Shown one piece after another: positions 47,133-58,070 of a stretch of DNA of 64,000 nucleotides (position 1 is its first letter; each line of letters begins with the position of its first letter). Source of the DNA: Alkalispirochaeta sp. (GTDB lineage: Bacteria > Spirochaetota > Spirochaetia > DSM-27196 > Alkalispirochaetaceae); contig OZ271854.1 of NCBI GenBank assembly GCA_965601925.1, positions 2,272,001-2,336,000 on the forward strand. Direction: 5' to 3'. Made by a program: the position numbers and the translations under genes. Below the pieces are notes generated by a model. That model did not search any database. It was not told where the DNA came from and saw only the letters and a program-made list of their open reading frames with translations.

Positions 47133-48281
47133 CTACCTGCCGCCTCGCATCGTCAACATGCGCACCGTACCCTGCAACTCCTGGATTTTCTTTCTTTGGG
47201 CGGCCAACACTTGGATGAACTCCTCCGCATCGGTGGCCGACGGCTCGGTTGCGGTCGAGCCGGCGCGCGCGTTGTTCAGCTCCGCCTCGTCATACTGGAG
47301 CTCGATGCGCGTCAGCTCGTATGAGTCCTCGTACAAGCTGCGCTCCAGCGCGAGGGTCGGAAACTCGGGGGATTGAACGATCTTCTGCGCGAGTCGATCG
47401 ATTTGGATCGCAAAAACCCCCGTCGGTTCGGCGACTATCATGGGCTGCGCGACGCGATAGCTCGCAGCCAAACGCTCGTCGAACATGACCGCTCCCAGAG
47501 ACTGCAAATACACATCCAAATTTTTCGATACGAGCTCTCGTAGACTCTCGGCGATGTTGAGGTCGTCGGTGCTGCGGGCGAGATTAAGCACCATGCTGGG
47601 CTGAAGAAGGTTCACGTAACGGCGCGCCTTGTCCGCGGCCTCCTGGTCGAGTCCTCGGATACCGTCGATGACCGACGCGACGCGTACCGGCTGTCCGGGC
47701 CGCACCTCGCGAATCTCCTTGCGAAGGTAGCGCGCTATCTCCGGTTGCTTCGCAAAGGCGCGGAAGAAAAAGCGGAATACCATGTTCTTGAGAAAACTGT
47801 ACGCGTTGAGCACGGCGCCTACATGGGGCGAACTCACGACGATCCCGGAGTTGGAGACGAGAAAAAAGTCCACCACGTTATTGGATGCACCGGAACCGAG
47901 GTCGAGAAGCACGTAGTCCGCGTCTATGTTTTCGACGTGCTTGAGAAGGCTTCGCTTTTGTCCGTAGGTGATATTGGGCATACCGGCGACCAGCACGTCT
48001 CCGGGAACGAAGAAGAGATTTTCGTACGGCGTTGCGGCGATGAGACCCTCGAAAGTTAGTTTGCGATCGGAAAAGAAGTTGCCGAGTCCCGGTTTCTTGT
48101 TTTTGATCGCCAGCGTGGAATGCAGATTGGAACCGCCCAGGTCGAGGTCGATGACGACCGTGCGGTATCCGAGCTGGCCCAGACGTACTCCGAGACCGGC
48201 GCACAACTCGGTCTTCCCGACACCACCCTTACCCCCTGCGATGGGAATAATCTTGCAATGCCGCCGCTGCGTAATGACCAT
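47133..48281 (-). CDS. MinD/FlhG-family P-loop ATPase with C-terminal coiled coil
   Basis: IAGGKGGVGKT deviant Walker A, DLDLGGSNL, VLLDLGSG, NAYSFLK. Confidence 0.92.
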   Translation of the reverse strand: MVITQRRHCKIIPIAGGKGGVGKTELCAGLGVRLGQLGYRTVVIDLDLGGSNLHSTLAIKNKKPGLGNFFSDRKLTFEGLIAATPYENLFFVPGDVLVAGMPNITYGQKRSLLKHVENIDADYVLLDLGSGASNNVVDFFLVSNSGIVVSSPHVGAVLNAYSFLKNMVFRFFFRAFAKQPEIARYLRKEIREVRPGQPVRVASVIDGIRGLDQEAADKARRYVNLLQPSMVLNLARSTDDLNIAESLRELVSKNLDVYLQSLGAVMFDERLAASYRVAQPMIVAEPTGVFAIQIDRLAQKIVQSPEFPTLALERSLYEDSYELTRIELQYDEAELNNARAGSTATEPSATDAEEFIQVLAAQRKKIQELQGTVRMLTMRGGR

Positions 48282-48385
48282 ACAATAGAAAGGATAGCCG
48301 GAATTACGAACGTTGCAAACCGTCCAATTATGATGAAATCTGACGGAACCTATCGATTTGTGATATACTCCGTCGTGGAGTTGTA

Positions 48386-50827
48386 GTGCAAAGGTCTGAT
48401 GCGAAACGGTCGGGAGGACGGGTCTTTCGAATCGATCGAGAGTGCTACATCGTCTATGTAGGCTCCGATCACCACCACGTACGACCCTTTCTGCGGATAG
48501 GAACGTCGCCCGACATTCCCGATCGAATTCGGCAGTACATCGAAACGGTCGTGCTCACCGACAGACTCACCGGCGACCCGACGCAGGAGTCGGCGACGGT
48601 CGGCCCCTCAGTTCCCCGAAAACCGGACTACACGGGCTCACACGAGCTGATTCGCTCGGCAAAGCCCTTTTTTGCCGCCGCGCGCATTTCAGAACGCCCG
48701 ATCGACTCCCAGGGAGCGGATAAGAGCGAAGGGGCATTCGTCGAGTTTTTAACCGACGGAACGCTCAATGTGATGGTCAACGGGCATCGCGTCTTCGATT
48801 TGACGCGGCGCGAGCGCGACGATCGTCACGCCGCCTATCAACTCGATCGCATTGCGCAAACGGTCGAGTCGGCCTCTGGTCGCTACCGCGCCGAGGCGTT
48901 TGAACCGGCCGGCTTTCTCGTGACCGCCGACCGGTCGCTCTTCTTCTTCCGCGACGGCGAGATCGAAGCGCGCGCGTTGCGTCCCAAGGGTATTCGCGCT
49001 CTCGCGGAGCGGTTGGTACCGCTCTCGTTACTTACACACTTCTCAGGCCCCGTCGATCCGGACGGATTTCTTACCATTGCCAAGTGGGCGCTTCGGGCGG
49101 GGGCGACACATACCGCCGCCGACCGAACGATCCGCCTCTACGCCGACGGCACGCTGCCCGGAAAGTTGGCGCCGTTGGTCGAGTTGTTTCGCGCGGCGGG
49201 ACTCTCGGTTGAGGTCGCGTCTGCCGACGCCGCCTTTGCCGAGTTGCCGTCGCCCGCCTCCGGTGCTCCCGGTATCTCATTAGCCGTCGGTCGTACCATC
49301 GAATGGCCCCACACGAGCTCCATCAATGTGCCCGATGAGGCGGAGTGGGCTCACGGCGTCGTACCGCCGCTTTTACCGGGCGTGCCCTACCGGCTTCGCT
49401 CTTCGGTCTCCGAGATCCCCGAGACCGACGGAACGCTCGAGTCGCTGGCGGGTGACGAGCAAAGCGCACAGGGGCGGCTCGCGCGCGGTTTAGCGGCGTG
49501 GAACGAACACGGCGTCGCATCGGTCGATCACGCGGAGTTGGCCCGAGACGTGGAACGGCTCCTCGACGAGGCGCCGATACCCGTTCTCGCCGACGTATAT
49601 CCGACCGATGTGGGATATACCGTGCGATTCATGGTGCAGCACGGGTTCACCCTCGGCGACGTGACCGATAACCGTCGCGCCGTAACGCGTATCGGCGCAA
49701 TAACGTCGGAGGGCGTTGATGAGGCGTTTTTCCTCAGCGAGCGTCGCCGGCTCCTCGACTTCCTCGACGAACTCCTTCGGCAACGCCGAGCAACGGTCCG
49801 TAAAGAGACGCCGCCTCCGTCCAACAAGGACGACGGTTCGAAGGGCGGGAGACCGACCGGAGCCGACACATCCGCCGACTCGGCGGGAGGCGGCGCGCCC
49901 CGGGTAGAGCCCGCGGCGGCGGCTCGCAGCGCGACAACGAGGGGAGTCGGTTCACCCGTCGGAACGACCGCCCCCGGCGCACCCTCGTCGACGTCTCGCC
50001 GCTTCGGACCGGTGCCCGTCGCCGTCGCGGTCGGGCTGTTTCTGCTGCTCGCCGGCGGCGGGGCCTTTTTTTTGCTTCGCGGGCGTACCGTCGGCGAAAC
50101 CGAATCTCCCGGTGCCGTGGCGCTTCGTCCCGCCGACTCCGAATCGGGTTCCGACGGCGGTGTGCGAGAGACCGACCCCACCGTCGGGCCGGGAACGCTC
50201 GTCGACGAGGGCGCTCCCTCGGAGCCGATCGAGAGCGATTCCGTGTCGCGATCCGCCCCCGCTGGGCGAACCGGCGATGATGCGTCTTCAAACGATACGC
50301 CTTCTCGCTCGCAGCCGCGCTCGACCGAGGCTACCGACGCGCAGAACGGAGATCGAGCACGAGTCGCCGACGGCGAACCCGACCCCGACGGTGCGTCCCC
50401 GGCCGTCCTCGCCGCCCCGGAAAATCAACGTAACGAAGCGCCCACCTACGCGTTCGACGTGGAGCTGGAGATAACCGCGCTCGATGTGTTGATCCTGGTA
50501 AACGAGATCGCTCTGCGCAACGGCTACGCGCCCATCGGAGATTTTCAAACCGGCGCGCCGAGCCCCGATTGGATATACCCCGATAACATCTTCGTGTTGC
50601 CCGACGGGGCATCGTATCGAGTCGCGCGAGGCGACACACTCTGGGGAATCGCCTCGACGTTTCTTCGTGAGTCCATGAACCATAATCACACAACGCTCAC
50701 AAATATTGCGCATCGTATCGACCGCGGCGAGCGTCCGATCGATGAGTTGGAGGCGTTAGTTGAGGCGGCCCACATCGAGAGTATAAGGAGGGAAGCGCTG
50801 GAATTGATTCGACAGCTTGAGGTTTGA
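48386..50827 (+). CDS. Bitopic membrane protein with low-complexity linkers and a LysM-like C-terminal region
   Basis: Single TM VPVAVAVGLFLLLAGGGAFFLL; PDWIYPDNIFVLP and YRVARGDTLWGIA LysM-like half motifs. Confidence 0.8.
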   Translation: MQRSDAKRSGGRVFRIDRECYIVYVGSDHHHVRPFLRIGTSPDIPDRIRQYIETVVLTDRLTGDPTQESATVGPSVPRKPDYTGSHELIRSAKPFFAAARISERPIDSQGADKSEGAFVEFLTDGTLNVMVNGHRVFDLTRRERDDRHAAYQLDRIAQTVESASGRYRAEAFEPAGFLVTADRSLFFFRDGEIEARALRPKGIRALAERLVPLSLLTHFSGPVDPDGFLTIAKWALRAGATHTAADRTIRLYADGTLPGKLAPLVELFRAAGLSVEVASADAAFAELPSPASGAPGISLAVGRTIEWPHTSSINVPDEAEWAHGVVPPLLPGVPYRLRSSVSEIPETDGTLESLAGDEQSAQGRLARGLAAWNEHGVASVDHAELARDVERLLDEAPIPVLADVYPTDVGYTVRFMVQHGFTLGDVTDNRRAVTRIGAITSEGVDEAFFLSERRRLLDFLDELLRQRRATVRKETPPPSNKDDGSKGGRPTGADTSADSAGGGAPRVEPAAAARSATTRGVGSPVGTTAPGAPSSTSRRFGPVPVAVAVGLFLLLAGGGAFFLLRGRTVGETESPGAVALRPADSESGSDGGVRETDPTVGPGTLVDEGAPSEPIESDSVSRSAPAGRTGDDASSNDTPSRSQPRSTEATDAQNGDRARVADGEPDPDGASPAVLAAPENQRNEAPTYAFDVELEITALDVLILVNEIALRNGYAPIGDFQTGAPSPDWIYPDNIFVLPDGASYRVARGDTLWGIASTFLRESMNHNHTTLTNIAHRIDRGERPIDELEALVEAAHIESIRREALELIRQLEV

Positions 50828-50929: not shown

Positions 50930-52927
50930 ATGTCTGATCTATCACGCAGTCCAAACGTATTTCACCCGGAGCGCCCCTCCGCGGTCGGTTCGCGAAACAG
51001 CCTTGCGCAGGATGGTCGCGATCAGAAGCATGAATACGATCAACTGATTACCGAAGAGGCCGACAAAGTTTTACAAACGATTCAAACCAAACTTCCCGCC
51101 GAAGTTCTGGAACGTCTCGACGTCATGGGTGGTCTGAAGGAGAAGTTGTATAACTACTTCAACCAGAACTACCAGAACATGTTCAACCGGTACATCACCA
51201 CCACCGAAGACGAGATGGTGAAGAAGATCCGGAACTTCATCGACAAGGAAGAGAACAAAGCGCTCGCGCGGTACACGCCCAAAGAGATCGCCGAAATGCT
51301 CGACCAGATCGCCGGCGCAGACAAGTTCAACACCGGCGAGATCGAGAAGTCGATCGTCAACATGTACGGGCACCTCCAGGGGCACGTACAGCGCGGCATG
51401 AACGACCTGGAGACGCACACCAACTCGCTCTTGCGGCAGAAGACCGACGTCGGCGCCTTTATCCGCGGCGAGAATGCGTATTCGGTCGTCAAGTGCGCCT
51501 TCAAAGACAACATAATGAAGCCCAAGACGGTCAGCGACGCCAAGCTCTCGGTCAACATTCTCGACTCCGAGTTGATCAGCCCGATCTTCCAGTATCAGTC
51601 CACCGTCGAGTATTTGATCAAGGATCAGATCTCGCGCACGATCACCAACATGATCGAGCAGGAGGTCGAGCGCTTTCAGGACGAGCTCATCGACGAAGGA
51701 AAGGAGGAGCTGAGCGACACGGAGATCATCTTCGAGAAGATGAAGCGGGTCACCAACTTCACCGACGACAACCTCGAGGACGAGACCTCCAAGCGCTACT
51801 CTTTTCTCGCCAAAGAGCTTATCGAGAAGATCGAAGGACTCCGCGCCGAGATCGATCCGGCGCAGTTCGATCCCCTCAACATCCGCGAGAACTTGAAGAA
51901 GATCATCGACATGGAGAACATCCGTAACCGCGGCTTCAACACGTCGGTCAACTCGATCACCTCGATTCTCGACACTTCCAAAATGGGCTATCAGTTCGTT
52001 GAGAACCTCAAGAATGCTCGCGAGTTGATCATCCGCGAGTATGAGGACACCGACGCGCGCGAGCTCCCCGACGAGCGCTATCAGATTCGTCTCAAGTACT
52101 ACGATCCGGAGCAGCTCAAGAAGGAGCAGGAAGCCTACGATCTGCAGCTCGAATCATTTCGTCGCGAGATTCAGAATCTGTACGACATCGTCGAGGCGGT
52201 CTACGCCAGCGGCAAGTCGAGTTTCCGTGTGGACGACTTCGAGGATCTGGTTCGCAAGTTCGACAAGCGCGCCAAACGGCGCAAAGAGAGCATGACCTTT
52301 GAGGAGTCGGGCGACCCCTTAGTCGCCGAGCTGCGTCGCACCTGGAACGAGATCGTACGTATCAAGTCCGATATGACCGACGTGGAGAAGCTCAACCAGA
52401 CCTATCTCCACGAGAAGACGCTCTTCCGCAAGATGCTGATGGCCATCTCCGACCGTGTGAAACAGGTTTACGGCTTCCAGAATCCGAAGGAGAGAGTCGT
52501 GCTCGATCAGCGCATCAGCTTCCTGAAGACTCACTTCGAGGAGTTCGAGTACCTGATCAACCCGTATCACGTGCAGCCCGGGCTCCTCTTGGACGTCGAC
52601 ATTACGAGCATCAAGCGGAAGAAGTTCACTCTCAACGGCATGGCCAACGTGCTCAATGAGTTCCTTCATGGAATCTCCAAGGGATTCCAGGACGCCGCGT
52701 TTGCCGCCTTCAAGCGACGCCGCTCCACGGTGCGCGAGGATATCGGCATGAACTTCGAGACGGCCTACGATGAGGAGTCGACGGTCGTGGAGGGCGATCC
52801 GGCGGCGAACGCCAACACCAGCTTTGGCGCTGCGAGCGACAACGGACAGGCGGCGACGGTCAAAGGTCGAGCCGACGTATCGCCCAAGGCGGGTGAGATC
52901 GACGACGACGAGCTACAGGAACTGTAG
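50930..52927 (+). CDS. cfpA: Spirochaete cytoplasmic filament protein A
   Basis: [22 protein letters not shown]...[29 protein letters not shown] matches the Treponema CfpA N-terminus as I recall it; AT-rich upstream region with TATAAT (50883-50888), SD GGGGG, strongly biased codons. Confidence 0.93.
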
Positions 52928-52932
52928 TCGTT

Positions 52933-53868
52933 ATGCCAGGTAATCTGGATCTTCTTTCGCGCAGGGTCGGCTTCAACGCCGCCCTGCGCCATTTTAAGCG
53001 GGTATCTTCGTTCCTCCCGGTCGTTCCGAAAGGCGCCAACCTCGCCGATCTGTTGGCCGAGGAGGTCGATCAGGAACGCATGGGGCGCCATCAGATGGCC
53101 CCTGCGGTCAGCGCACTGTTGGTCGATAAGTTTGCCTATCGATATCGATCGGCCAACGCGGTGAGGACGGTCGAGGATGCCGGCGCGATCGTTACCAAAC
53201 TCGCCGAGTGGAGCGCGATCCAAATCGTACTCACCTACGAACATCCGCAAGCGGGTCTCTTTGTCATAAACCCCAAGCGTGAGGGTTCGTGGGAAGGTGC
53301 GCTTCCCATATTGCGCGACGAACTTATCGTCGTCTATGTGCAGGCGCTCGCGAAGTCCGTGACCGAGGAGACGTTGCTGAGGGCGCTCGACGACGTGCAC
53401 CGTTTGCTTGCCGGCGAGGCGGTCGAGACCTCTCCGGAGTACGTTTCCAAGCGGGCCGCAGCCTCCCCACCGGCGCCCGCCAAACCCGCCGCACCGGCTC
53501 CCCAAAAGGCGTCGGCGGCAGCGGCGTCCGGGAAAAAGCGACGCATGACGCCGCGATACTCCGTCGTTGTAACGAACGAGCTTTTTCACAACGGTAACGT
53601 TGAGGCGTGGAAACGCATTATCGCAAGCTACCGACAGAAGCACGGGGCTCTCGATGTGCTTATTTGGTACGATAACGAGCGCATCAACGACATCAATGCG
53701 CTTTTTAAGTGGGGGAAGGTCAAGCACGGCACACCGATTTTGGTGAGCGTCGTGGGCGATGAAATCAAAGACGTCTCCAAACTGCAACGCTACCTCTTCG
53801 AAGGCGCCAGTCCGCGCTTTGAGATGTTCCTGAAAGGCAGCATCGACCAACCCCTCGACCTGTTCTGA
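52933..53868 (+). CDS. Hypothetical protein with a Pro/Ala linker and a putative C-terminal HPr-like domain
   Basis: 5 bp after cfpA; C-terminal YSVVVTNELFH...DVLIWY...VKHGTPILVSVVGDE pattern. CDS is firm; HPr likeness is inference. Confidence 0.8.
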   Translation: MPGNLDLLSRRVGFNAALRHFKRVSSFLPVVPKGANLADLLAEEVDQERMGRHQMAPAVSALLVDKFAYRYRSANAVRTVEDAGAIVTKLAEWSAIQIVLTYEHPQAGLFVINPKREGSWEGALPILRDELIVVYVQALAKSVTEETLLRALDDVHRLLAGEAVETSPEYVSKRAAASPPAPAKPAAPAPQKASAAAASGKKRRMTPRYSVVVTNELFHNGNVEAWKRIIASYRQKHGALDVLIWYDNERINDINALFKWGKVKHGTPILVSVVGDEIKDVSKLQRYLFEGASPRFEMFLKGSIDQPLDLF

Positions 53869-53888: not shown

Positions 53889-56513
53889 ATGAGTGAAATC
53901 GTCCTGTTCGGCGATCGTAAGCATACTCTTGACCAGTCGACGCTGGATATCGTCGGTAGCCGCGGCGTGCGGGCCGTGTCGCTGGTCGATCTGGACGTCC
54001 CGATCTGTCCCGGCTTTGTCGTGCCGAACGGCTTTTTGGAGACGTTCCCGGACAATACGACCACCGCGTGGGCGGTCCTCAAGGAGCCGGTCGACGCCGT
54101 TGAGAAGGGGATGAAGCGGCGCTTCGGGAGTTCGGAGCAGGTGTTACTCCTCAAGGCGGTCGAGAGTCCCATGCTCAACGTGCGCAGTGCGCTCCCGTCG
54201 GTGCACCACGTGGGGCTGTGTGAGGGCACCATCGACGGAATCGCGGCGGCGGCCGGGGAGACCTTTGCATATCGGGAGTACGCATACCTCATTTCCAGTA
54301 TTCTGAAGCTTGAGATGGCCTCGGGTGTCGACGATACGAGGCAAAAAGCGCTCCAGGCGTTCGTCGACGATTTGCGTTCCGCTAAGCGCAAGGCGTCGGT
54401 ACTCAAGGTGCTTGAGCAGCATAAAGGCGTATTGCAGGAAGAGATATTTACCGAGCCCTTTTTTCAGCTCGCCTACGTACTCAAGCTCTTTCGCGCTGCG
54501 TTCAAGACGAGTCCGACCAGCGAGGACAGCGCCGTGCTCGTGCAGGCGATGGTGTACGGTAACTTCGACAAAGACAGCAGCTCCGGTTATCTCTACACGC
54601 ATAACATCATCTCCGGTGACGACGAGTTACAGGGTGAGTTCTTTCCCAAGGCGTTCGACGAGACCTCCGGCAAGGGCAAGGCGCTCGGCGGTCTTGCAAA
54701 AAAACACGTCGAAGAGCTGCAGACGATCGCGCGGACGCTGGAAGACCATTTTCGCGAGTTGCGTTTCGTCCGTTTTACGATCGAAAGCGGCAAGTTATGG
54801 CTCGTCGATCAAGGTGCCGTCAGCAACAAATCGACGCAGGCGGAGATCAAAACACTTCTCGACCTCATGCGACGCAAAGTCGTAAGCGAGGAGTACGTGA
54901 TAAACGCGATCAAACCGGGGCGTCTGGCGGAGATTCTCCACCCGACTCTCGATCGATCTTCGGTGTCTTCGTTCAAAGCGATACAGGGCGGTATCGCGGG
55001 TTCGGTCGGCGCCGCGATCGGACGAGTCTATTTTTCCACGGACCGTCTCATAGCCGCCCACCGACAAGCACAGATCGAAGGCGAGGATACGGACGTGATT
55101 CTCGCGATGCCGGCGACCTTTGCCGGAGACGTCAAGGGGATCGAAGTCGCTCAAGGCGTACTCTCCTCCGAGGGCGGCTACGCGTCCCACGCACCGGTTG
55201 TCGCGCGCAGCTTGGGAAAAGTGGCGCTCGTTTGGTCGGATGTCACGTTCAAGGCAAAGTCGATGGTGATCGACGGCAACGAGATCAAAGAGGGCGACTA
55301 TCTCACGCTTGATGTTCCGTACTATGAGGATCCGTCCATTTTTATAGGGCGCGGATCGCTGACGAAACCCACGCCTGAGGATTCGGGACTTCTCGACCTG
55401 CTGGAGGTGATCCAGCCGCGGATCAGGGATATGGACGTCCACGCCAACGCCGACCAACCGCGCGATGCGAAGCTGGCGCGCACCTTCGGCGCCCGGGGGA
55501 TCGGTTTGTGCCGCACCGAGCACATGTTCTTCGACGAGTCGCGCATCAATCGCTTCCGCTACATGATCCTCGCCGATTCCGAGGAGAAGCGGCTTGAGAT
55601 CCTGGAAGATTTGCGCGACGATCAAACCGAAGACTTCTACGGTCTATTCAAGATCATGGAGGGTTTGCCGGTTACGATTCGGCTTCTCGACGCGCCGCTG
55701 CACGAGTTTCTTCCGGCGACGCGCGAGACGATGGCGGCCTTCATCAAGCAGGCCGCGGCGGACAAGGTCGGACTTTCCAAGGCGACCATCGAGGCGCGAT
55801 CGCGATTGCTCCGGGAGTTTAACCCGATGCTCGGCCATCGGGGCATCCGGATCGCCATCTCATATCCTGAGATCTACCGAATGCAGATTCGTGCGATCTT
55901 CGATGCGGCGTATCGGCTCAAGAAGGAGGGCATTGAGGCGAAGCCGGAAATCATGATTCCCCTCGTAATGACGCCGAATGAGCTGAAGGTCGTCCGTAAC
56001 GGTAAGCGGATCGAAGGAAAGCAAATCCTCGGTGTCCGCGATATCGAAGAGGAGATTCGTGCGAAATATGAGATCGACTCGATTGAGTATCGCGTCGGCA
56101 CGATGATCGAGTTGCCCGCCGCTGCACTCAACGGGGGCGGGATCGCCCGGTATGCCGATTTCTTCTCGTTCGGGACCAACGATCTGACCCAAACGACCTA
56201 CGGAATCTCACGGGACGACTTCAACAACTTCTTCTCGGACTACAATGAGTTCGATCTGCTGCCGAGCAATCCTTTCAAAGTATTGCAGCCGCAAGTCCGA
56301 GAACTCGTGCAGACCGCCGCGCTGAGGGGGCGTATGGTGCGCCCCGATCTTAAGCTCGGACTATGTGGCGAGCACGGGGCGGAGCCCGAGAACGTCACCT
56401 TTTTTCGGGATTCAGGTCTGAACTACGTGTCGGTGTCGCCGTACGGCATTCCCATTGCAAAATTGGCCATTGCTCAGATGAATCTCAAGGAAGAGGCTGC
56501 GCAGAAGGGCTGA
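53889..56513 (+). CDS. Pyruvate phosphate dikinase-like PEP-utilising protein with a degenerate nucleotide-binding domain
   Basis: SD AAGGAG; GGYASHAPVVAR, GIGLCRTEHMFF, TIRLLD, EFNPMLGHRG, MIELP, FSFGTNDLTQ, GLCGEHG; N-terminal motifs diverged. Confidence 0.92.
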   Translation: MSEIVLFGDRKHTLDQSTLDIVGSRGVRAVSLVDLDVPICPGFVVPNGFLETFPDNTTTAWAVLKEPVDAVEKGMKRRFGSSEQVLLLKAVESPMLNVRSALPSVHHVGLCEGTIDGIAAAAGETFAYREYAYLISSILKLEMASGVDDTRQKALQAFVDDLRSAKRKASVLKVLEQHKGVLQEEIFTEPFFQLAYVLKLFRAAFKTSPTSEDSAVLVQAMVYGNFDKDSSSGYLYTHNIISGDDELQGEFFPKAFDETSGKGKALGGLAKKHVEELQTIARTLEDHFRELRFVRFTIESGKLWLVDQGAVSNKSTQAEIKTLLDLMRRKVVSEEYVINAIKPGRLAEILHPTLDRSSVSSFKAIQGGIAGSVGAAIGRVYFSTDRLIAAHRQAQIEGEDTDVILAMPATFAGDVKGIEVAQGVLSSEGGYASHAPVVARSLGKVALVWSDVTFKAKSMVIDGNEIKEGDYLTLDVPYYEDPSIFIGRGSLTKPTPEDSGLLDLLEVIQPRIRDMDVHANADQPRDAKLARTFGARGIGLCRTEHMFFDESRINRFRYMILADSEEKRLEILEDLRDDQTEDFYGLFKIMEGLPVTIRLLDAPLHEFLPATRETMAAFIKQAAADKVGLSKATIEARSRLLREFNPMLGHRGIRIAISYPEIYRMQIRAIFDAAYRLKKEGIEAKPEIMIPLVMTPNELKVVRNGKRIEGKQILGVRDIEEEIRAKYEIDSIEYRVGTMIELPAAALNGGGIARYADFFSFGTNDLTQTTYGISRDDFNNFFSDYNEFDLLPSNPFKVLQPQVRELVQTAALRGRMVRPDLKLGLCGEHGAEPENVTFFRDSGLNYVSVSPYGIPIAKLAIAQMNLKEEAAQKG

Positions 56514-56527
56514 TCGCACAGTGCGTC

Positions 56528-57409
56528 CTATGCGGCGTCCAGGACGTCGCATAGGCGATTGAACGTTTCGAGAAGGTACAGTTTGATCAGCGTCTCCGGC
56601 GTGTACTGACACTTAGGATAGTGTGCGACCACCAGCATGAGCGCCCGCTCGCACGTAGAGAGTGTGGCGGGGTACGGAGCTTTATTCCCCAGTTGATTGC
56701 CGAAGAGTCTGGCGCGAATCGCATCGTCCAGCGTCTCGGAACCTTGGCGATACAGACGATATGCTCGGTACTCGTTGCCGCTCAGAACTTGGTGGCTATG
56801 CGGTTTTATCAGAAGATTCTCATAAAATGCCGCGGCAAACGCGTGTACCGTCGTCACCTGATGGCGTTGGATTTTGCTGCCCGGCCACTGCTTGAGTTCC
56901 TGAAACCTGGCGACGACGTTTCGCAGTTGCTTGAAAATAGTGCGGAATCGGTACCGGAAACTCCCCTCGCTGCGTAGGTGTAGGTTTTCCAAACCGAAGG
57001 AATAAAAGACGAATAGCTGATCCAAGAGGAGATCGTACTCGGCGGCAAGACGCATCTGCAATGTTACGCTATAGGCCGGATCGACCTGCGACTCGTCGGC
57101 TCTCTCGGTATATTGACTTTCGTCCGTTGTATATCCCGAACGTTGCCGACCGACGCCCGATCCGTATACGTCCGCCGTTTCGGTTATGGGTTCGTCAACG
57201 GCGACCGTGTCGCCGCCGTTTCGCAGATAGTCGGTTGCCGCCAGATATGCCTCGTTGAGCTCGACGGTTCTTTCGTGTGACCACTCGGTCCGGTCAAGAT
57301 TGCGGTCGGGGTGATATATTTTAAGAAGCCTCCTAAATGAGAGGCTGACATCTTCTAATGTGGCGCCGTTGGAAAGCTCCAATACTTTGAATGCAACAGC
57401 GATATCCAT
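56528..57409 (-). CDS. J-domain (class C DnaJ-like) protein
   Basis: N-terminal AFKVLEL...FRRLLKIYHPDRN...LNEAY; unknown helical C-terminus. Confidence 0.9.
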   Translation of the reverse strand: MDIAVAFKVLELSNGATLEDVSLSFRRLLKIYHPDRNLDRTEWSHERTVELNEAYLAATDYLRNGGDTVAVDEPITETADVYGSGVGRQRSGYTTDESQYTERADESQVDPAYSVTLQMRLAAEYDLLLDQLFVFYSFGLENLHLRSEGSFRYRFRTIFKQLRNVVARFQELKQWPGSKIQRHQVTTVHAFAAAFYENLLIKPHSHQVLSGNEYRAYRLYRQGSETLDDAIRARLFGNQLGNKAPYPATLSTCERALMLVVAHYPKCQYTPETLIKLYLLETFNRLCDVLDAA

Positions 57410-57417
57410 TACCGTTT

Positions 57418-57479
57418 ATCATACGGCACGCTGTCTGCAAACACAATGCTTTGCAAAAGGTGGATCGGACGGCTACCAT
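57418..57479. promoter_or_regulatory. Back-to-back sigma70 promoters
   Basis: Minus: TTGTGT(57446-57441)-N17-TATGAT(57423-57418). Plus: TTGCAA(57451-57456)-N17-TACCAT(57474-57479). Confidence 0.65.
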
Positions 57480-57512
57480 GTACAATATCACCGACGATCG
57501 GAGGAAGACTGC

Positions 57513-58070
57513 ATGGCGAACGCGAAAGAATTGTTTCCCGCATATCAGGCAGGCGAGCTACCGAGGGAGCACGGCTATGTAGTGAGTACCTTCTATCATG
57601 ATGGTTCCAACTACACGCGCTACGAACTCATTTCCTTCGACAACGTAAAAGACATCTTTGTCGGCGAGGAGGGGCTCACCTTTCAGGCCGAAGGGCGGAA
57701 GCTCTACGTGTTGGTGGAACCGGCCGGCTGGCCCAATAACCACACGGAGCCGGCCTACCGGTCCGAAGCCGAGCGCATTCCCTACAGGCTCAAGGAGCTT
57801 ATCGACTATAGAACGCGTCGACAGGACCATGTGTATGTCGGCCGCGAGCCCGTCGTTACCTACAGCGCCTTTACGATCATGAAACCGGTAGGCCAAGACG
57901 CCTCCTACGTCTTTTACCCCGTCGAGGACGTGCGCAAAAACATTATGGAATTTTTTCGCCTCTCCCTCTGGAAACAGGCGCGCGTGCCTCAGGGCGATGT
58001 TCGCGAGGTCGTAAAGATTATCGACGAGGTCTTCGAAAAAATCGTTGTGGGGCGCGGCGAGTTCCGCTGA
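57513..58070 (+). CDS. Hypothetical protein
   Basis: SD GGAGGA before ATG 57513; 185 aa, globular-looking, no recognised motif. Confidence 0.8.
   Translation: MANAKELFPAYQAGELPREHGYVVSTFYHDGSNYTRYELISFDNVKDIFVGEEGLTFQAEGRKLYVLVEPAGWPNNHTEPAYRSEAERIPYRLKELIDYRTRRQDHVYVGREPVVTYSAFTIMKPVGQDASYVFYPVEDVRKNIMEFFRLSLWKQARVPQGDVREVVKIIDEVFEKIVVGRGEFR

Follow-up and report, generated by a model that had tools for sequence, protein, structure and literature searches.

The cfpA locus of Alkalispirochaeta

The window analysed here is a stretch of 64,000 nucleotides from Alkalispirochaeta sp. (GenBank assembly GCA_965601925.1, contig OZ271854.1, positions 2,272,001 to 2,336,000; G000 in our genome set). 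Its open reading frame (ORF) 53889-56513 on the forward strand is an intact frame of 874 amino acids (aa) and encodes a paralogue derived from pyruvate phosphate dikinase (PPDK). The original prediction described this gene as a full-length PPDK homologue that had systematically lost the catalytic residues of its ATP-grasp domain. The frame is indeed free of breaks, and it stands last in a block of three genes:

50930..52927, + strand: cfpA, cytoplasmic filament protein, 665 aa, first of the three genes (NF040882, 1123 bits against a cut-off of 500)
52933..53868, + strand: partner gene, 311 aa, second of the three, after a 5-nt gap; short helical bundle, His-less HPr fold, Pro/Ala/Lys linker and His-bearing HPr fold (from the ORF and predicted folds)
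53889..56513, + strand: PPDK-derived paralogue, third of the three, after a 20-nt gap

We searched 301 genomes of the phylum, counting the paralogue above 550 bits and leaving out a partial match at a contig edge (G067), and found the high-scoring form in 110. Exactly the same 110 genomes encode the C-terminal domain of the partner (110/110), cfpA was found in 109 of these and in two others, and none of the three genes was found in 189. Named members of the clade include Alkalispirochaeta, Salinispira, Spirochaeta and five Treponema species. In 40 long loci, picked from the 110 genomes to spread over families, the partner lies directly upstream of the paralogue 37 times and the full three-gene order is present 34 times.

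CfpA has no sequence relative in the PDB. In a comparison that left out L123, 140 of its columns are invariant; His148, His152 and His547, invariant in 41/41 sequences, are candidate terminal acceptors for the relay proposed below. One genome (G005) has two extra cfpA copies (L119 and L120) with neither partner nor paralogue within 16 kb. A table in PMC3914990 gives T. denticola TDE0842-0844 as repressed together, and TDE0844 and CfpA are reported among 16 main proteins found in the envelope fraction (PMC3931704). According to a review, the CfpA filament is needed for division and chromosome segregation (PMC3296230).

Remodelling of the ATP-grasp domain

The phmmer alignments of the paralogue span residues 5-864 against maize PPDK and 17-866 against the PPDK of Clostridium symbiosum, and the closest PDB entries are likewise PPDKs, which match it from end to end (E 6.7e-144). 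It scores below the cut-offs of the PPDK equivalog TIGR01828 (646.9 bits, cut-off 843.45), of the ATP domain PF01326 (21.5 bits, cut-off 27) and of TIGR01417 (112.7 bits, cut-off 341.7), the family of Enzyme I (EI) of the phosphoenolpyruvate (PEP) phosphotransferase system (PTS). Pfam matches are limited to PF02896 (E 9e-70), PF00391 and a weak PF01326; the PEP barrel and the phospho-His domain of the EI type are both present. The expectation that the gene would be annotated as ppdK was borne out in the JGI and UniRef entries, which name it pyruvate phosphate dikinase, but not in many NCBI entries, which read "putative PEP-binding protein". The parts of the paralogue are as follows (MSA, multiple sequence alignment):

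53889..54848, + strand: remodelled ATP-grasp domain, residues 1-320, with the canonical nucleotide loops replaced (MSA)
53961, 54153, 54762, 54771 and 54810, + strand: codon positions of the ATP-grasp residues R25, K89, R292, R295 and Q308 (MSA)
54942..55373, + strand: swivelling His domain, limits approximate (PF00391); His434 at 55188-55190, Thr to Ala at 55182, clade-specific K416, E419 and Y479 insertion
55416..56492, + strand: PEP/pyruvate barrel (PF02896), with R542, R598, E741, N764, D765 and C826 intact
56001-56018, + strand: clade-specific invariant barrel insertion, residues 705-710 (MSA)

Residue equivalences were taken from the phmmer alignment and from an MSA of 76 sequences (53 clade orthologues, all full length, and 23 canonical PPDKs). 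R92, D321, E323, Q335 and R337 have catalytic roles in the PPDK of C. symbiosum. K22 is linked to the gamma-phosphate of ATP (PMC4844700). From this set of six the paralogue keeps only the Gln. R92 is replaced by V91, D321 by F293 and E323 by R295, as had been predicted, and the losses extend over the clade, with R92 and E323 each present in 0/53 orthologues and D321 in 4/53. The predicted loss of K22 and of the Q335/R337 pair held only in part. The Lys is gone, but through a conservative swap to an Arg (R25) that is invariant (53/53); R337 has become A310 and is an Arg in 1/53, but Q335 survives as Q308, behind a one-residue insertion, and is kept in 53/53. The alignment thus restored no equivalent of K22, R92, E323 or R337. 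Among the canonical enzymes R92, D321, E323, Q335 and R337 are present in all 23, and K22 in 22 with one gap.

New basic residues have become fixed in the same domain. Besides R25, the S90 position is Lys (K89) and the Q320 position Arg (R292) in 53/53 orthologues, and the E323 column holds Lys or Arg in 50/53. G101, T253 and E279/D280, invariant in the 23 canonical PPDKs, are unconserved in the clade, which has also replaced or deleted the SxPGMM and AQGEDVVAGIRTP loops of the canonical enzymes along with their invariant helix around R219. Nor does the clade conserve E271 and the segment around R219, which we take to be the His-domain docking surface of PPDK. When C. symbiosum PPDK carries a triple mutation that includes these two residues, its His domain is found at the PEP domain (PMC5371819). 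The substitution pattern recurs in another set, of 120 database homologues, that overlaps the first in part, and the substitutions are common to the named proteins of T. denticola, T. phagedenis, T. pedis, T. putidum and T. vincentii. Because the residues and loops of the nucleotide site are lost clade-wide, the Mg-ATP chemistry of the paralogue is very probably gone and a conserved basic site remains. Judged from the alignment, the ATP pocket is remodelled into that site rather than simply lost, which refines the first reading.

The claim that this is selected neofunctionalisation and not decay is upheld. A tree built on the His and barrel domains separates the clade from canonical PPDKs by a stem of 0.74-0.79 substitutions/site (SH-aLRT 100, FastTree 1.0), and the nonsynonymous to synonymous rate ratio (dN/dS) of the N-domain is 0.008-0.11 (9/10 pairs with computable dS; several near saturation), well below 1. 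The substitutions are fixed clade-wide, and a second, canonical ppdK with all motifs present lies in the same genome at C1:4705427-4708066 on the reverse strand (L002). Identity to canonical enzymes is about 50% in the barrel and about 24% in the N-domain, where pairwise identity is 0.40 within the clade against 0.66 among the canonical enzymes. About 90 extra N-domain residues occur near residue 160 in L055, L056, L057 and L085, from three families. Some treponemes have Lys/Ala/Pro-rich, histone-like C-terminal tails of 68-179 aa, both on the paralogue (L047, L081, L082) and on the canonical PPDK (L087, L098).

The other two domains are unaltered at their active sites, as first described. The carrier His (H455 in C. 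symbiosum, here His434, codon CAC at 55188-55190) is intact and the motifs CRTEH, IRLLD, MIE, GTND and GLCGEH are all unchanged. The equivalents of H455, R561, R617, E745, N768, D769 and C831 are present in 53/53 orthologues, and in the second homologue set His434 is found in 120/120 and five barrel columns in 119/120. The regulatory Thr of the GGMTSH motif is Ala here (T453 to A432, at 55182), as had been noted, and Ser or Ala throughout the clade. We considered this change as an escape from the regulatory protein PDRP and dropped the idea, since PDRP (PF03618) was found in 0/6 carrier genomes tested.

Predicted HPr-like folds in the partner protein

The partner gene has no Pfam or NCBIfam match, and its alignment gave scattered weak matches only against Pfam and PDB sequences. 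Two of its regions were modelled by AlphaFold2 with the following result:

53137..53418, + strand: N-terminal HPr-like fold, about residues 69-162, with no His before helix 1 (pLDDT 92.4)
53545..53865, + strand: C-terminal HPr-like domain, residues 205-311 (pLDDT 92.8), with His219 at 53587-53589

For the N-terminal fold the five best VIA matches are HPr or NPr (Z 10.9-7.8; the next scores 5.7), the best match to the model of residues 4-167 having Z 10.9 and an rmsd (root-mean-square deviation) of 1.9 over 80 aligned residues. For the C-terminal domain the four best are HPr (Z 7.4-6.8; next 5.5), the best with an rmsd of 2.6 over 80 aligned residues, and the 31 best Foldseek rows listed are all HPr or Crh chains (best E 4.5e-3, none below 0.001). 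Both domains are therefore predicted to fold like HPr. Set against each other in hhalign, the two give a probability of 0.9%. An Atlas cluster named "HPr domain-containing protein", at 0.81 for the partner, is a lead only.

His219 is present in 40/40 partner members and lies directly before helix 1 (model residues 16-32), a placement that we take to be the position of HPr His15. The whole NxLFHNGNVEAWK stretch around it is invariant. Among 130 representatives of more distant relatives, 109 cover the His219 column and 97 of these have the His; of the 12 without it, two are apparently spurious. Asp253 (53689-53691), at least 90% conserved, falls at the position of HPr Ser46 in a weak alignment and might insulate the domain from true EI. 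An essential second acceptor at H20 was also considered and rejected; this His occurs in 38/39 close loci and in 50/66 ungapped distant rows. A complex prediction of paralogue residues 1-870 with the His219 domain gave a median of 0.30 against a mark of 0.32 and supports neither side.

Standalone relatives of 110-150 aa found outside spirochaetes (P0221, P0225, P0227, P0228 and P0231-P0233; loci L114-L118), named SAR324 or Deltaproteobacteria where named, are mostly without the His, and no PPDK-like or cfpA match lies within 5/5 of their metagenome loci (1-16 kb each; loci only). Seen by eye, their neighbours in the longer loci are presumably purH and ubiE. No fusion of partner and paralogue occurs among the 130 representatives, the longest credible match being 418 aa.

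Two relatives, P0215 and P0220, have both domains and keep the His with the N-terminal helical part absent; P0215 comes from a metagenome-assembled genome named "bacterium". These two suggest that the system may extend beyond the spirochaetes. In G280 the partner gene (L067:7032-7957) is split by an apparent frameshift into frames of 267 and 101 aa, either a real split or an assembly error.

A lineage without the ATP-grasp domain

In the complete genome G295 the paralogue is a 586-aa form that starts at about residue 312, directly after the stop codon of the partner. A paralogue match was found in 6/8 genomes of this genus, all of them lacking the N-domain and each behind a partner with His219. 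A more diverged form without the N-domain occurs in another genus (G308), with no partner within 8.5 kb. The seven genomes form one clade (FastTree support 1.0). The frames are intact at 62-91% identity, with the nonsynonymous proportion (pN) below the synonymous one (pS) in 15/15 pairs from six genomes. A search of six of the seven genomes for a clade-type N-domain elsewhere gave only matches of about 30% identity, located in long frames, as would be expected of the canonical paralogue. Since intact frames without the N-domain stand beside the partner and no such domain was found elsewhere, the system can apparently persist without ATP-grasp, leaving an EI-like core.

Three further short forms (G412, G393 and G382) were rejected as members of this lineage, being short only because contig ends cut them. 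Unlinking of cfpA was likewise set aside as a general driver of N-domain loss, because cfpA is unlinked in L053, L054, L076, L077 and L084 and the paralogue there is full length.

Glycolytic context and the T. pallidum annotation

The genome of the window has pyruvate kinase besides its canonical ppdK, most carriers of the paralogue have a second PPDK-family match, and pyruvate kinase was found in 4/5 genomes tested. G000 is also rich in PTS parts, with 11 PF02896 and eight PF00381 matches, and has four genes of the oxaloacetate decarboxylase beta type.

The product of L046 is identical to the records named PPDK_TREPA and AAC65714.1. In the complete genome of 1.1 Mb that encodes the PPDK_TREPA-identical protein (G088), the paralogue is the sole PPDK-like gene, and neither pyruvate kinase nor a PPDK_N match was found. 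This genome is the only one of the five genomes tested with a GTP-dependent PEP carboxykinase (GTP-PEPCK), and it also has oxaloacetate decarboxylase beta. The route from PEP through oxaloacetate to pyruvate is a recognised one (PMC8100219), and this bypass removes the strongest reason for the PPDK annotation. T. pallidum TP0746 is treated as a glycolytic enzyme by annotation (PMC10013896, PMC8525777), and the main text of the paper on the iTP251 metabolic model leaves the enzyme unmentioned. Because PPDK_TREPA is a member of the clade, and its genome lacks pyruvate kinase and PPDK_N matches but has the PEPCK/oxaloacetate decarboxylase route, the annotation of TP0746 as a glycolytic PPDK catalysing an ATP-yielding last step is doubtful.

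Surroundings of the block

In the flanks of the block (47133-50827 and 56528-58070) lie genes for a MinD/ParA-type ATPase and for an unannotated protein of 813 aa, a convergent gene with a DnaJ domain and an unannotated gene of 236 aa; they recur beside the block in several related families. A promoter scan of the locus gave one site against 2.9 expected, and none is claimed. No RNA holder is listed at the locus.

Proposed mechanism and alternative explanations

The HPr-fold partner with its His219 and the linkage to cfpA point to the likely new function of the paralogue. We lean towards the view, drawn from sequence comparison and fold models, that it is a PPDK-derived, EI-like PEP:protein phosphotransferase, the input of a His relay from PEP through His434 to His219 that is tied to the CfpA filament. 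PEP bound in the intact barrel would phosphorylate His434 with release of pyruvate, as is suggested by the full conservation of both sites and by established PPDK and EI chemistry. The swivelling His domain would then pass the phosphate to His219 of the partner and not to AMP/PPi, a step to which the fold of the partner, the position of its His, the 1:1 co-inheritance and the lost ATP machinery all point. Gene linkage, co-regulation and co-fractionation hint that this state of phosphorylation, governed by the ratio of PEP to pyruvate, might in turn control CfpA or a filament-bound target, or be passed on to it. At least one lineage would manage the first two steps without the rebuilt basic pocket of the N-domain, which probably binds an anion, a nucleotide or an acidic or phospho-protein surface as a regulatory or docking site.

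A number of observations weigh against this relay. A Z of 7.4, the best for the C-terminal domain of the partner, is of a size that the tool describes as common among small folds. The domain has H-N-G-N where HPr has its H-x-R-P motif, PF00381 matches 0/40 partner members (the partner in the window is not among the eight matches of its own genome), and hhalign of the domain against the seven HPrs of G000 gives a probability of 2.8%. The paralogue has no Pfam match to the N-terminal helical, HPr-binding subdomain of EI. The co-occurrence counts come from related genomes and overstate independence, and the membership of TDE0844 in the clade is inferred from gene order and from the named T. denticola proteins, not from its own sequence. 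The lineage without the N-domain represents one evolutionary event under relaxed constraint (pN/pS about 0.2-0.45), two of its members have an altered GTND motif, and in the G295 genus cfpA is unlinked and often carries internal deletions, and 2/8 (incomplete) genomes gave no match to it; the lineage may for these reasons be a system in decay. In the full-length members R25, K89, R292, K/R295 and Q308 are fixed, and R or K adjoins the R337 column in 28/53 orthologues. Rifampin phosphotransferase has a Mg-binding residue, Glu297, which we take to be the counterpart of E323. This Glu is reported to be dispensable (PMC4844700), and together with the fixed basic residues and the R or K beside R337 it suggests that full-length members may still do nucleotide chemistry.

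These last points favour an altered small-molecule phosphotransferase. Its basic pocket, lacking the canonical Mg ligands, would bind a different acceptor, be it Pi, a phosphosugar, ADP or another nucleotide, and phospho-His434 would be the donor, for instance in a step like that of pyruvate kinase. The low dN/dS of the N-domain and the lack of pyruvate kinase and PPDK_N matches in G088 also fit such an enzyme. It is nevertheless unlikely, because seven genomes have deleted the N-domain entirely and kept the rest, the R219 segment and E271 are unconserved, G088 has its bypass, pyruvate kinase is present in most genomes tested, and the constant presence of the partner would be left unexplained. 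We give similarly little credence to a PEP-sensing structural accessory of the filament, which would autophosphorylate or bind PEP, change its swivel state and dock to CfpA or the partner, with His219 as a binding residue and no onward phosphate. The abundance of TDE0844 beside CfpA in the T. denticola envelope fraction (PMC3931704), the clade-specific invariant surface insertions (Y479, 705-710), the His-less HPr fold, the missing HPr Arg and the invariance of the entire stretch around His219, not of the His alone, all agree with it; the siting of His219 at the HPr phospho-site, and its loss in most of the relatives not found beside the paralogue, do not.

A divergent but working PPDK, as annotated for T. 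pallidum, is very improbable. The three-domain layout is full length, K22 to Arg is conservative, Q335 is kept and TP0746 is by annotation a glycolytic enzyme (PMC10013896, PMC8525777), but R92, E323, G101, T253, E279/D280 and R337, invariant in the canonical enzymes, are unconserved in the clade, the scores lie under both family cut-offs and most carriers have a second PPDK-family match. A decaying duplicate, or pseudogene in progress, is effectively refuted for the full-length members: low pairwise identity in the N-domain would suit it, but the frames are intact across dozens of families, dN/dS is far below 1, new residues have become invariant, and transcript and protein are abundant in treponemes.

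A bolder form of the relay is tentative, and we rather doubt that all of it holds. A second, independent EI made from PPDK and a dedicated double-HPr adaptor would phosphorylate or gate the filament and thereby put the division cytoskeleton under direct control of the PEP:pyruvate ratio; T. pallidum would then have neither PPDK nor pyruvate kinase, its glycolysis ending through GTP-PEPCK and a Na+-pumping oxaloacetate decarboxylase.

Comparison with known systems

If the relay is real, a PTS-like His relay has arisen from a different parent enzyme and been wired to the cytoskeleton instead of sugar uptake, and the CfpA filament would gain its first testable regulator. It is likewise questionable whether TP0746, as annotated, carries out a final, ATP-yielding step of glycolysis. 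We found no publication on the lost ATP site or on the HPr-like neighbour in a search of mostly open-access main texts, with supplements and older cfpA papers outside its range. In the Treponema cfpA locus (TP0748-TP0746; TDE0842-0844) the gene order is the same, but the literature available calls the third gene PPDK and the second a conserved hypothetical, and no relay is proposed there.

With PPDK (EC 2.7.9.1; TIGR01828; PDB 1DIK/1KBL, 1VBG, 5JVJ) the paralogue shares three domains, the His carrier motif and a complete PEP/pyruvate site. It differs in the clade-wide replacement of its nucleotide-site residues, in a domain that could be deleted in one lineage and in its fixed linkage to an HPr-fold gene and cfpA. 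Rifampin phosphotransferase also reuses PPDK/PEP synthase modules for a new acceptor (PMC4844700), but it keeps the ATP-grasp domain and replaces the PEP domain, the reverse of what is seen here.

The likeness to EI and HPr of the PTS (TIGR01417, PF00381), including EI-Ntr and NPr, lies in the pairing of a PEP barrel and swivelling His domain with a protein of HPr fold whose His precedes helix 1, and the lineage without the N-domain has essentially the catalytic architecture of EI. The paralogue, however, is of PPDK descent, scoring 647 bits to TIGR01828 and 113 to TIGR01417, and has no helical HPr-binding domain, whereas the partner differs from HPr in its two folds, the absence of H-x-R-P and, in a weak alignment, an Asp at the Ser46 position. 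No EII genes were seen in the block, and true EI and HPr are encoded separately in G000. The paralogue thus fails the family tests of both PPDK and EI, and the partner that of HPr; yet sequence conservation and predicted folds suggest that the pair probably works in the manner of EI and HPr.

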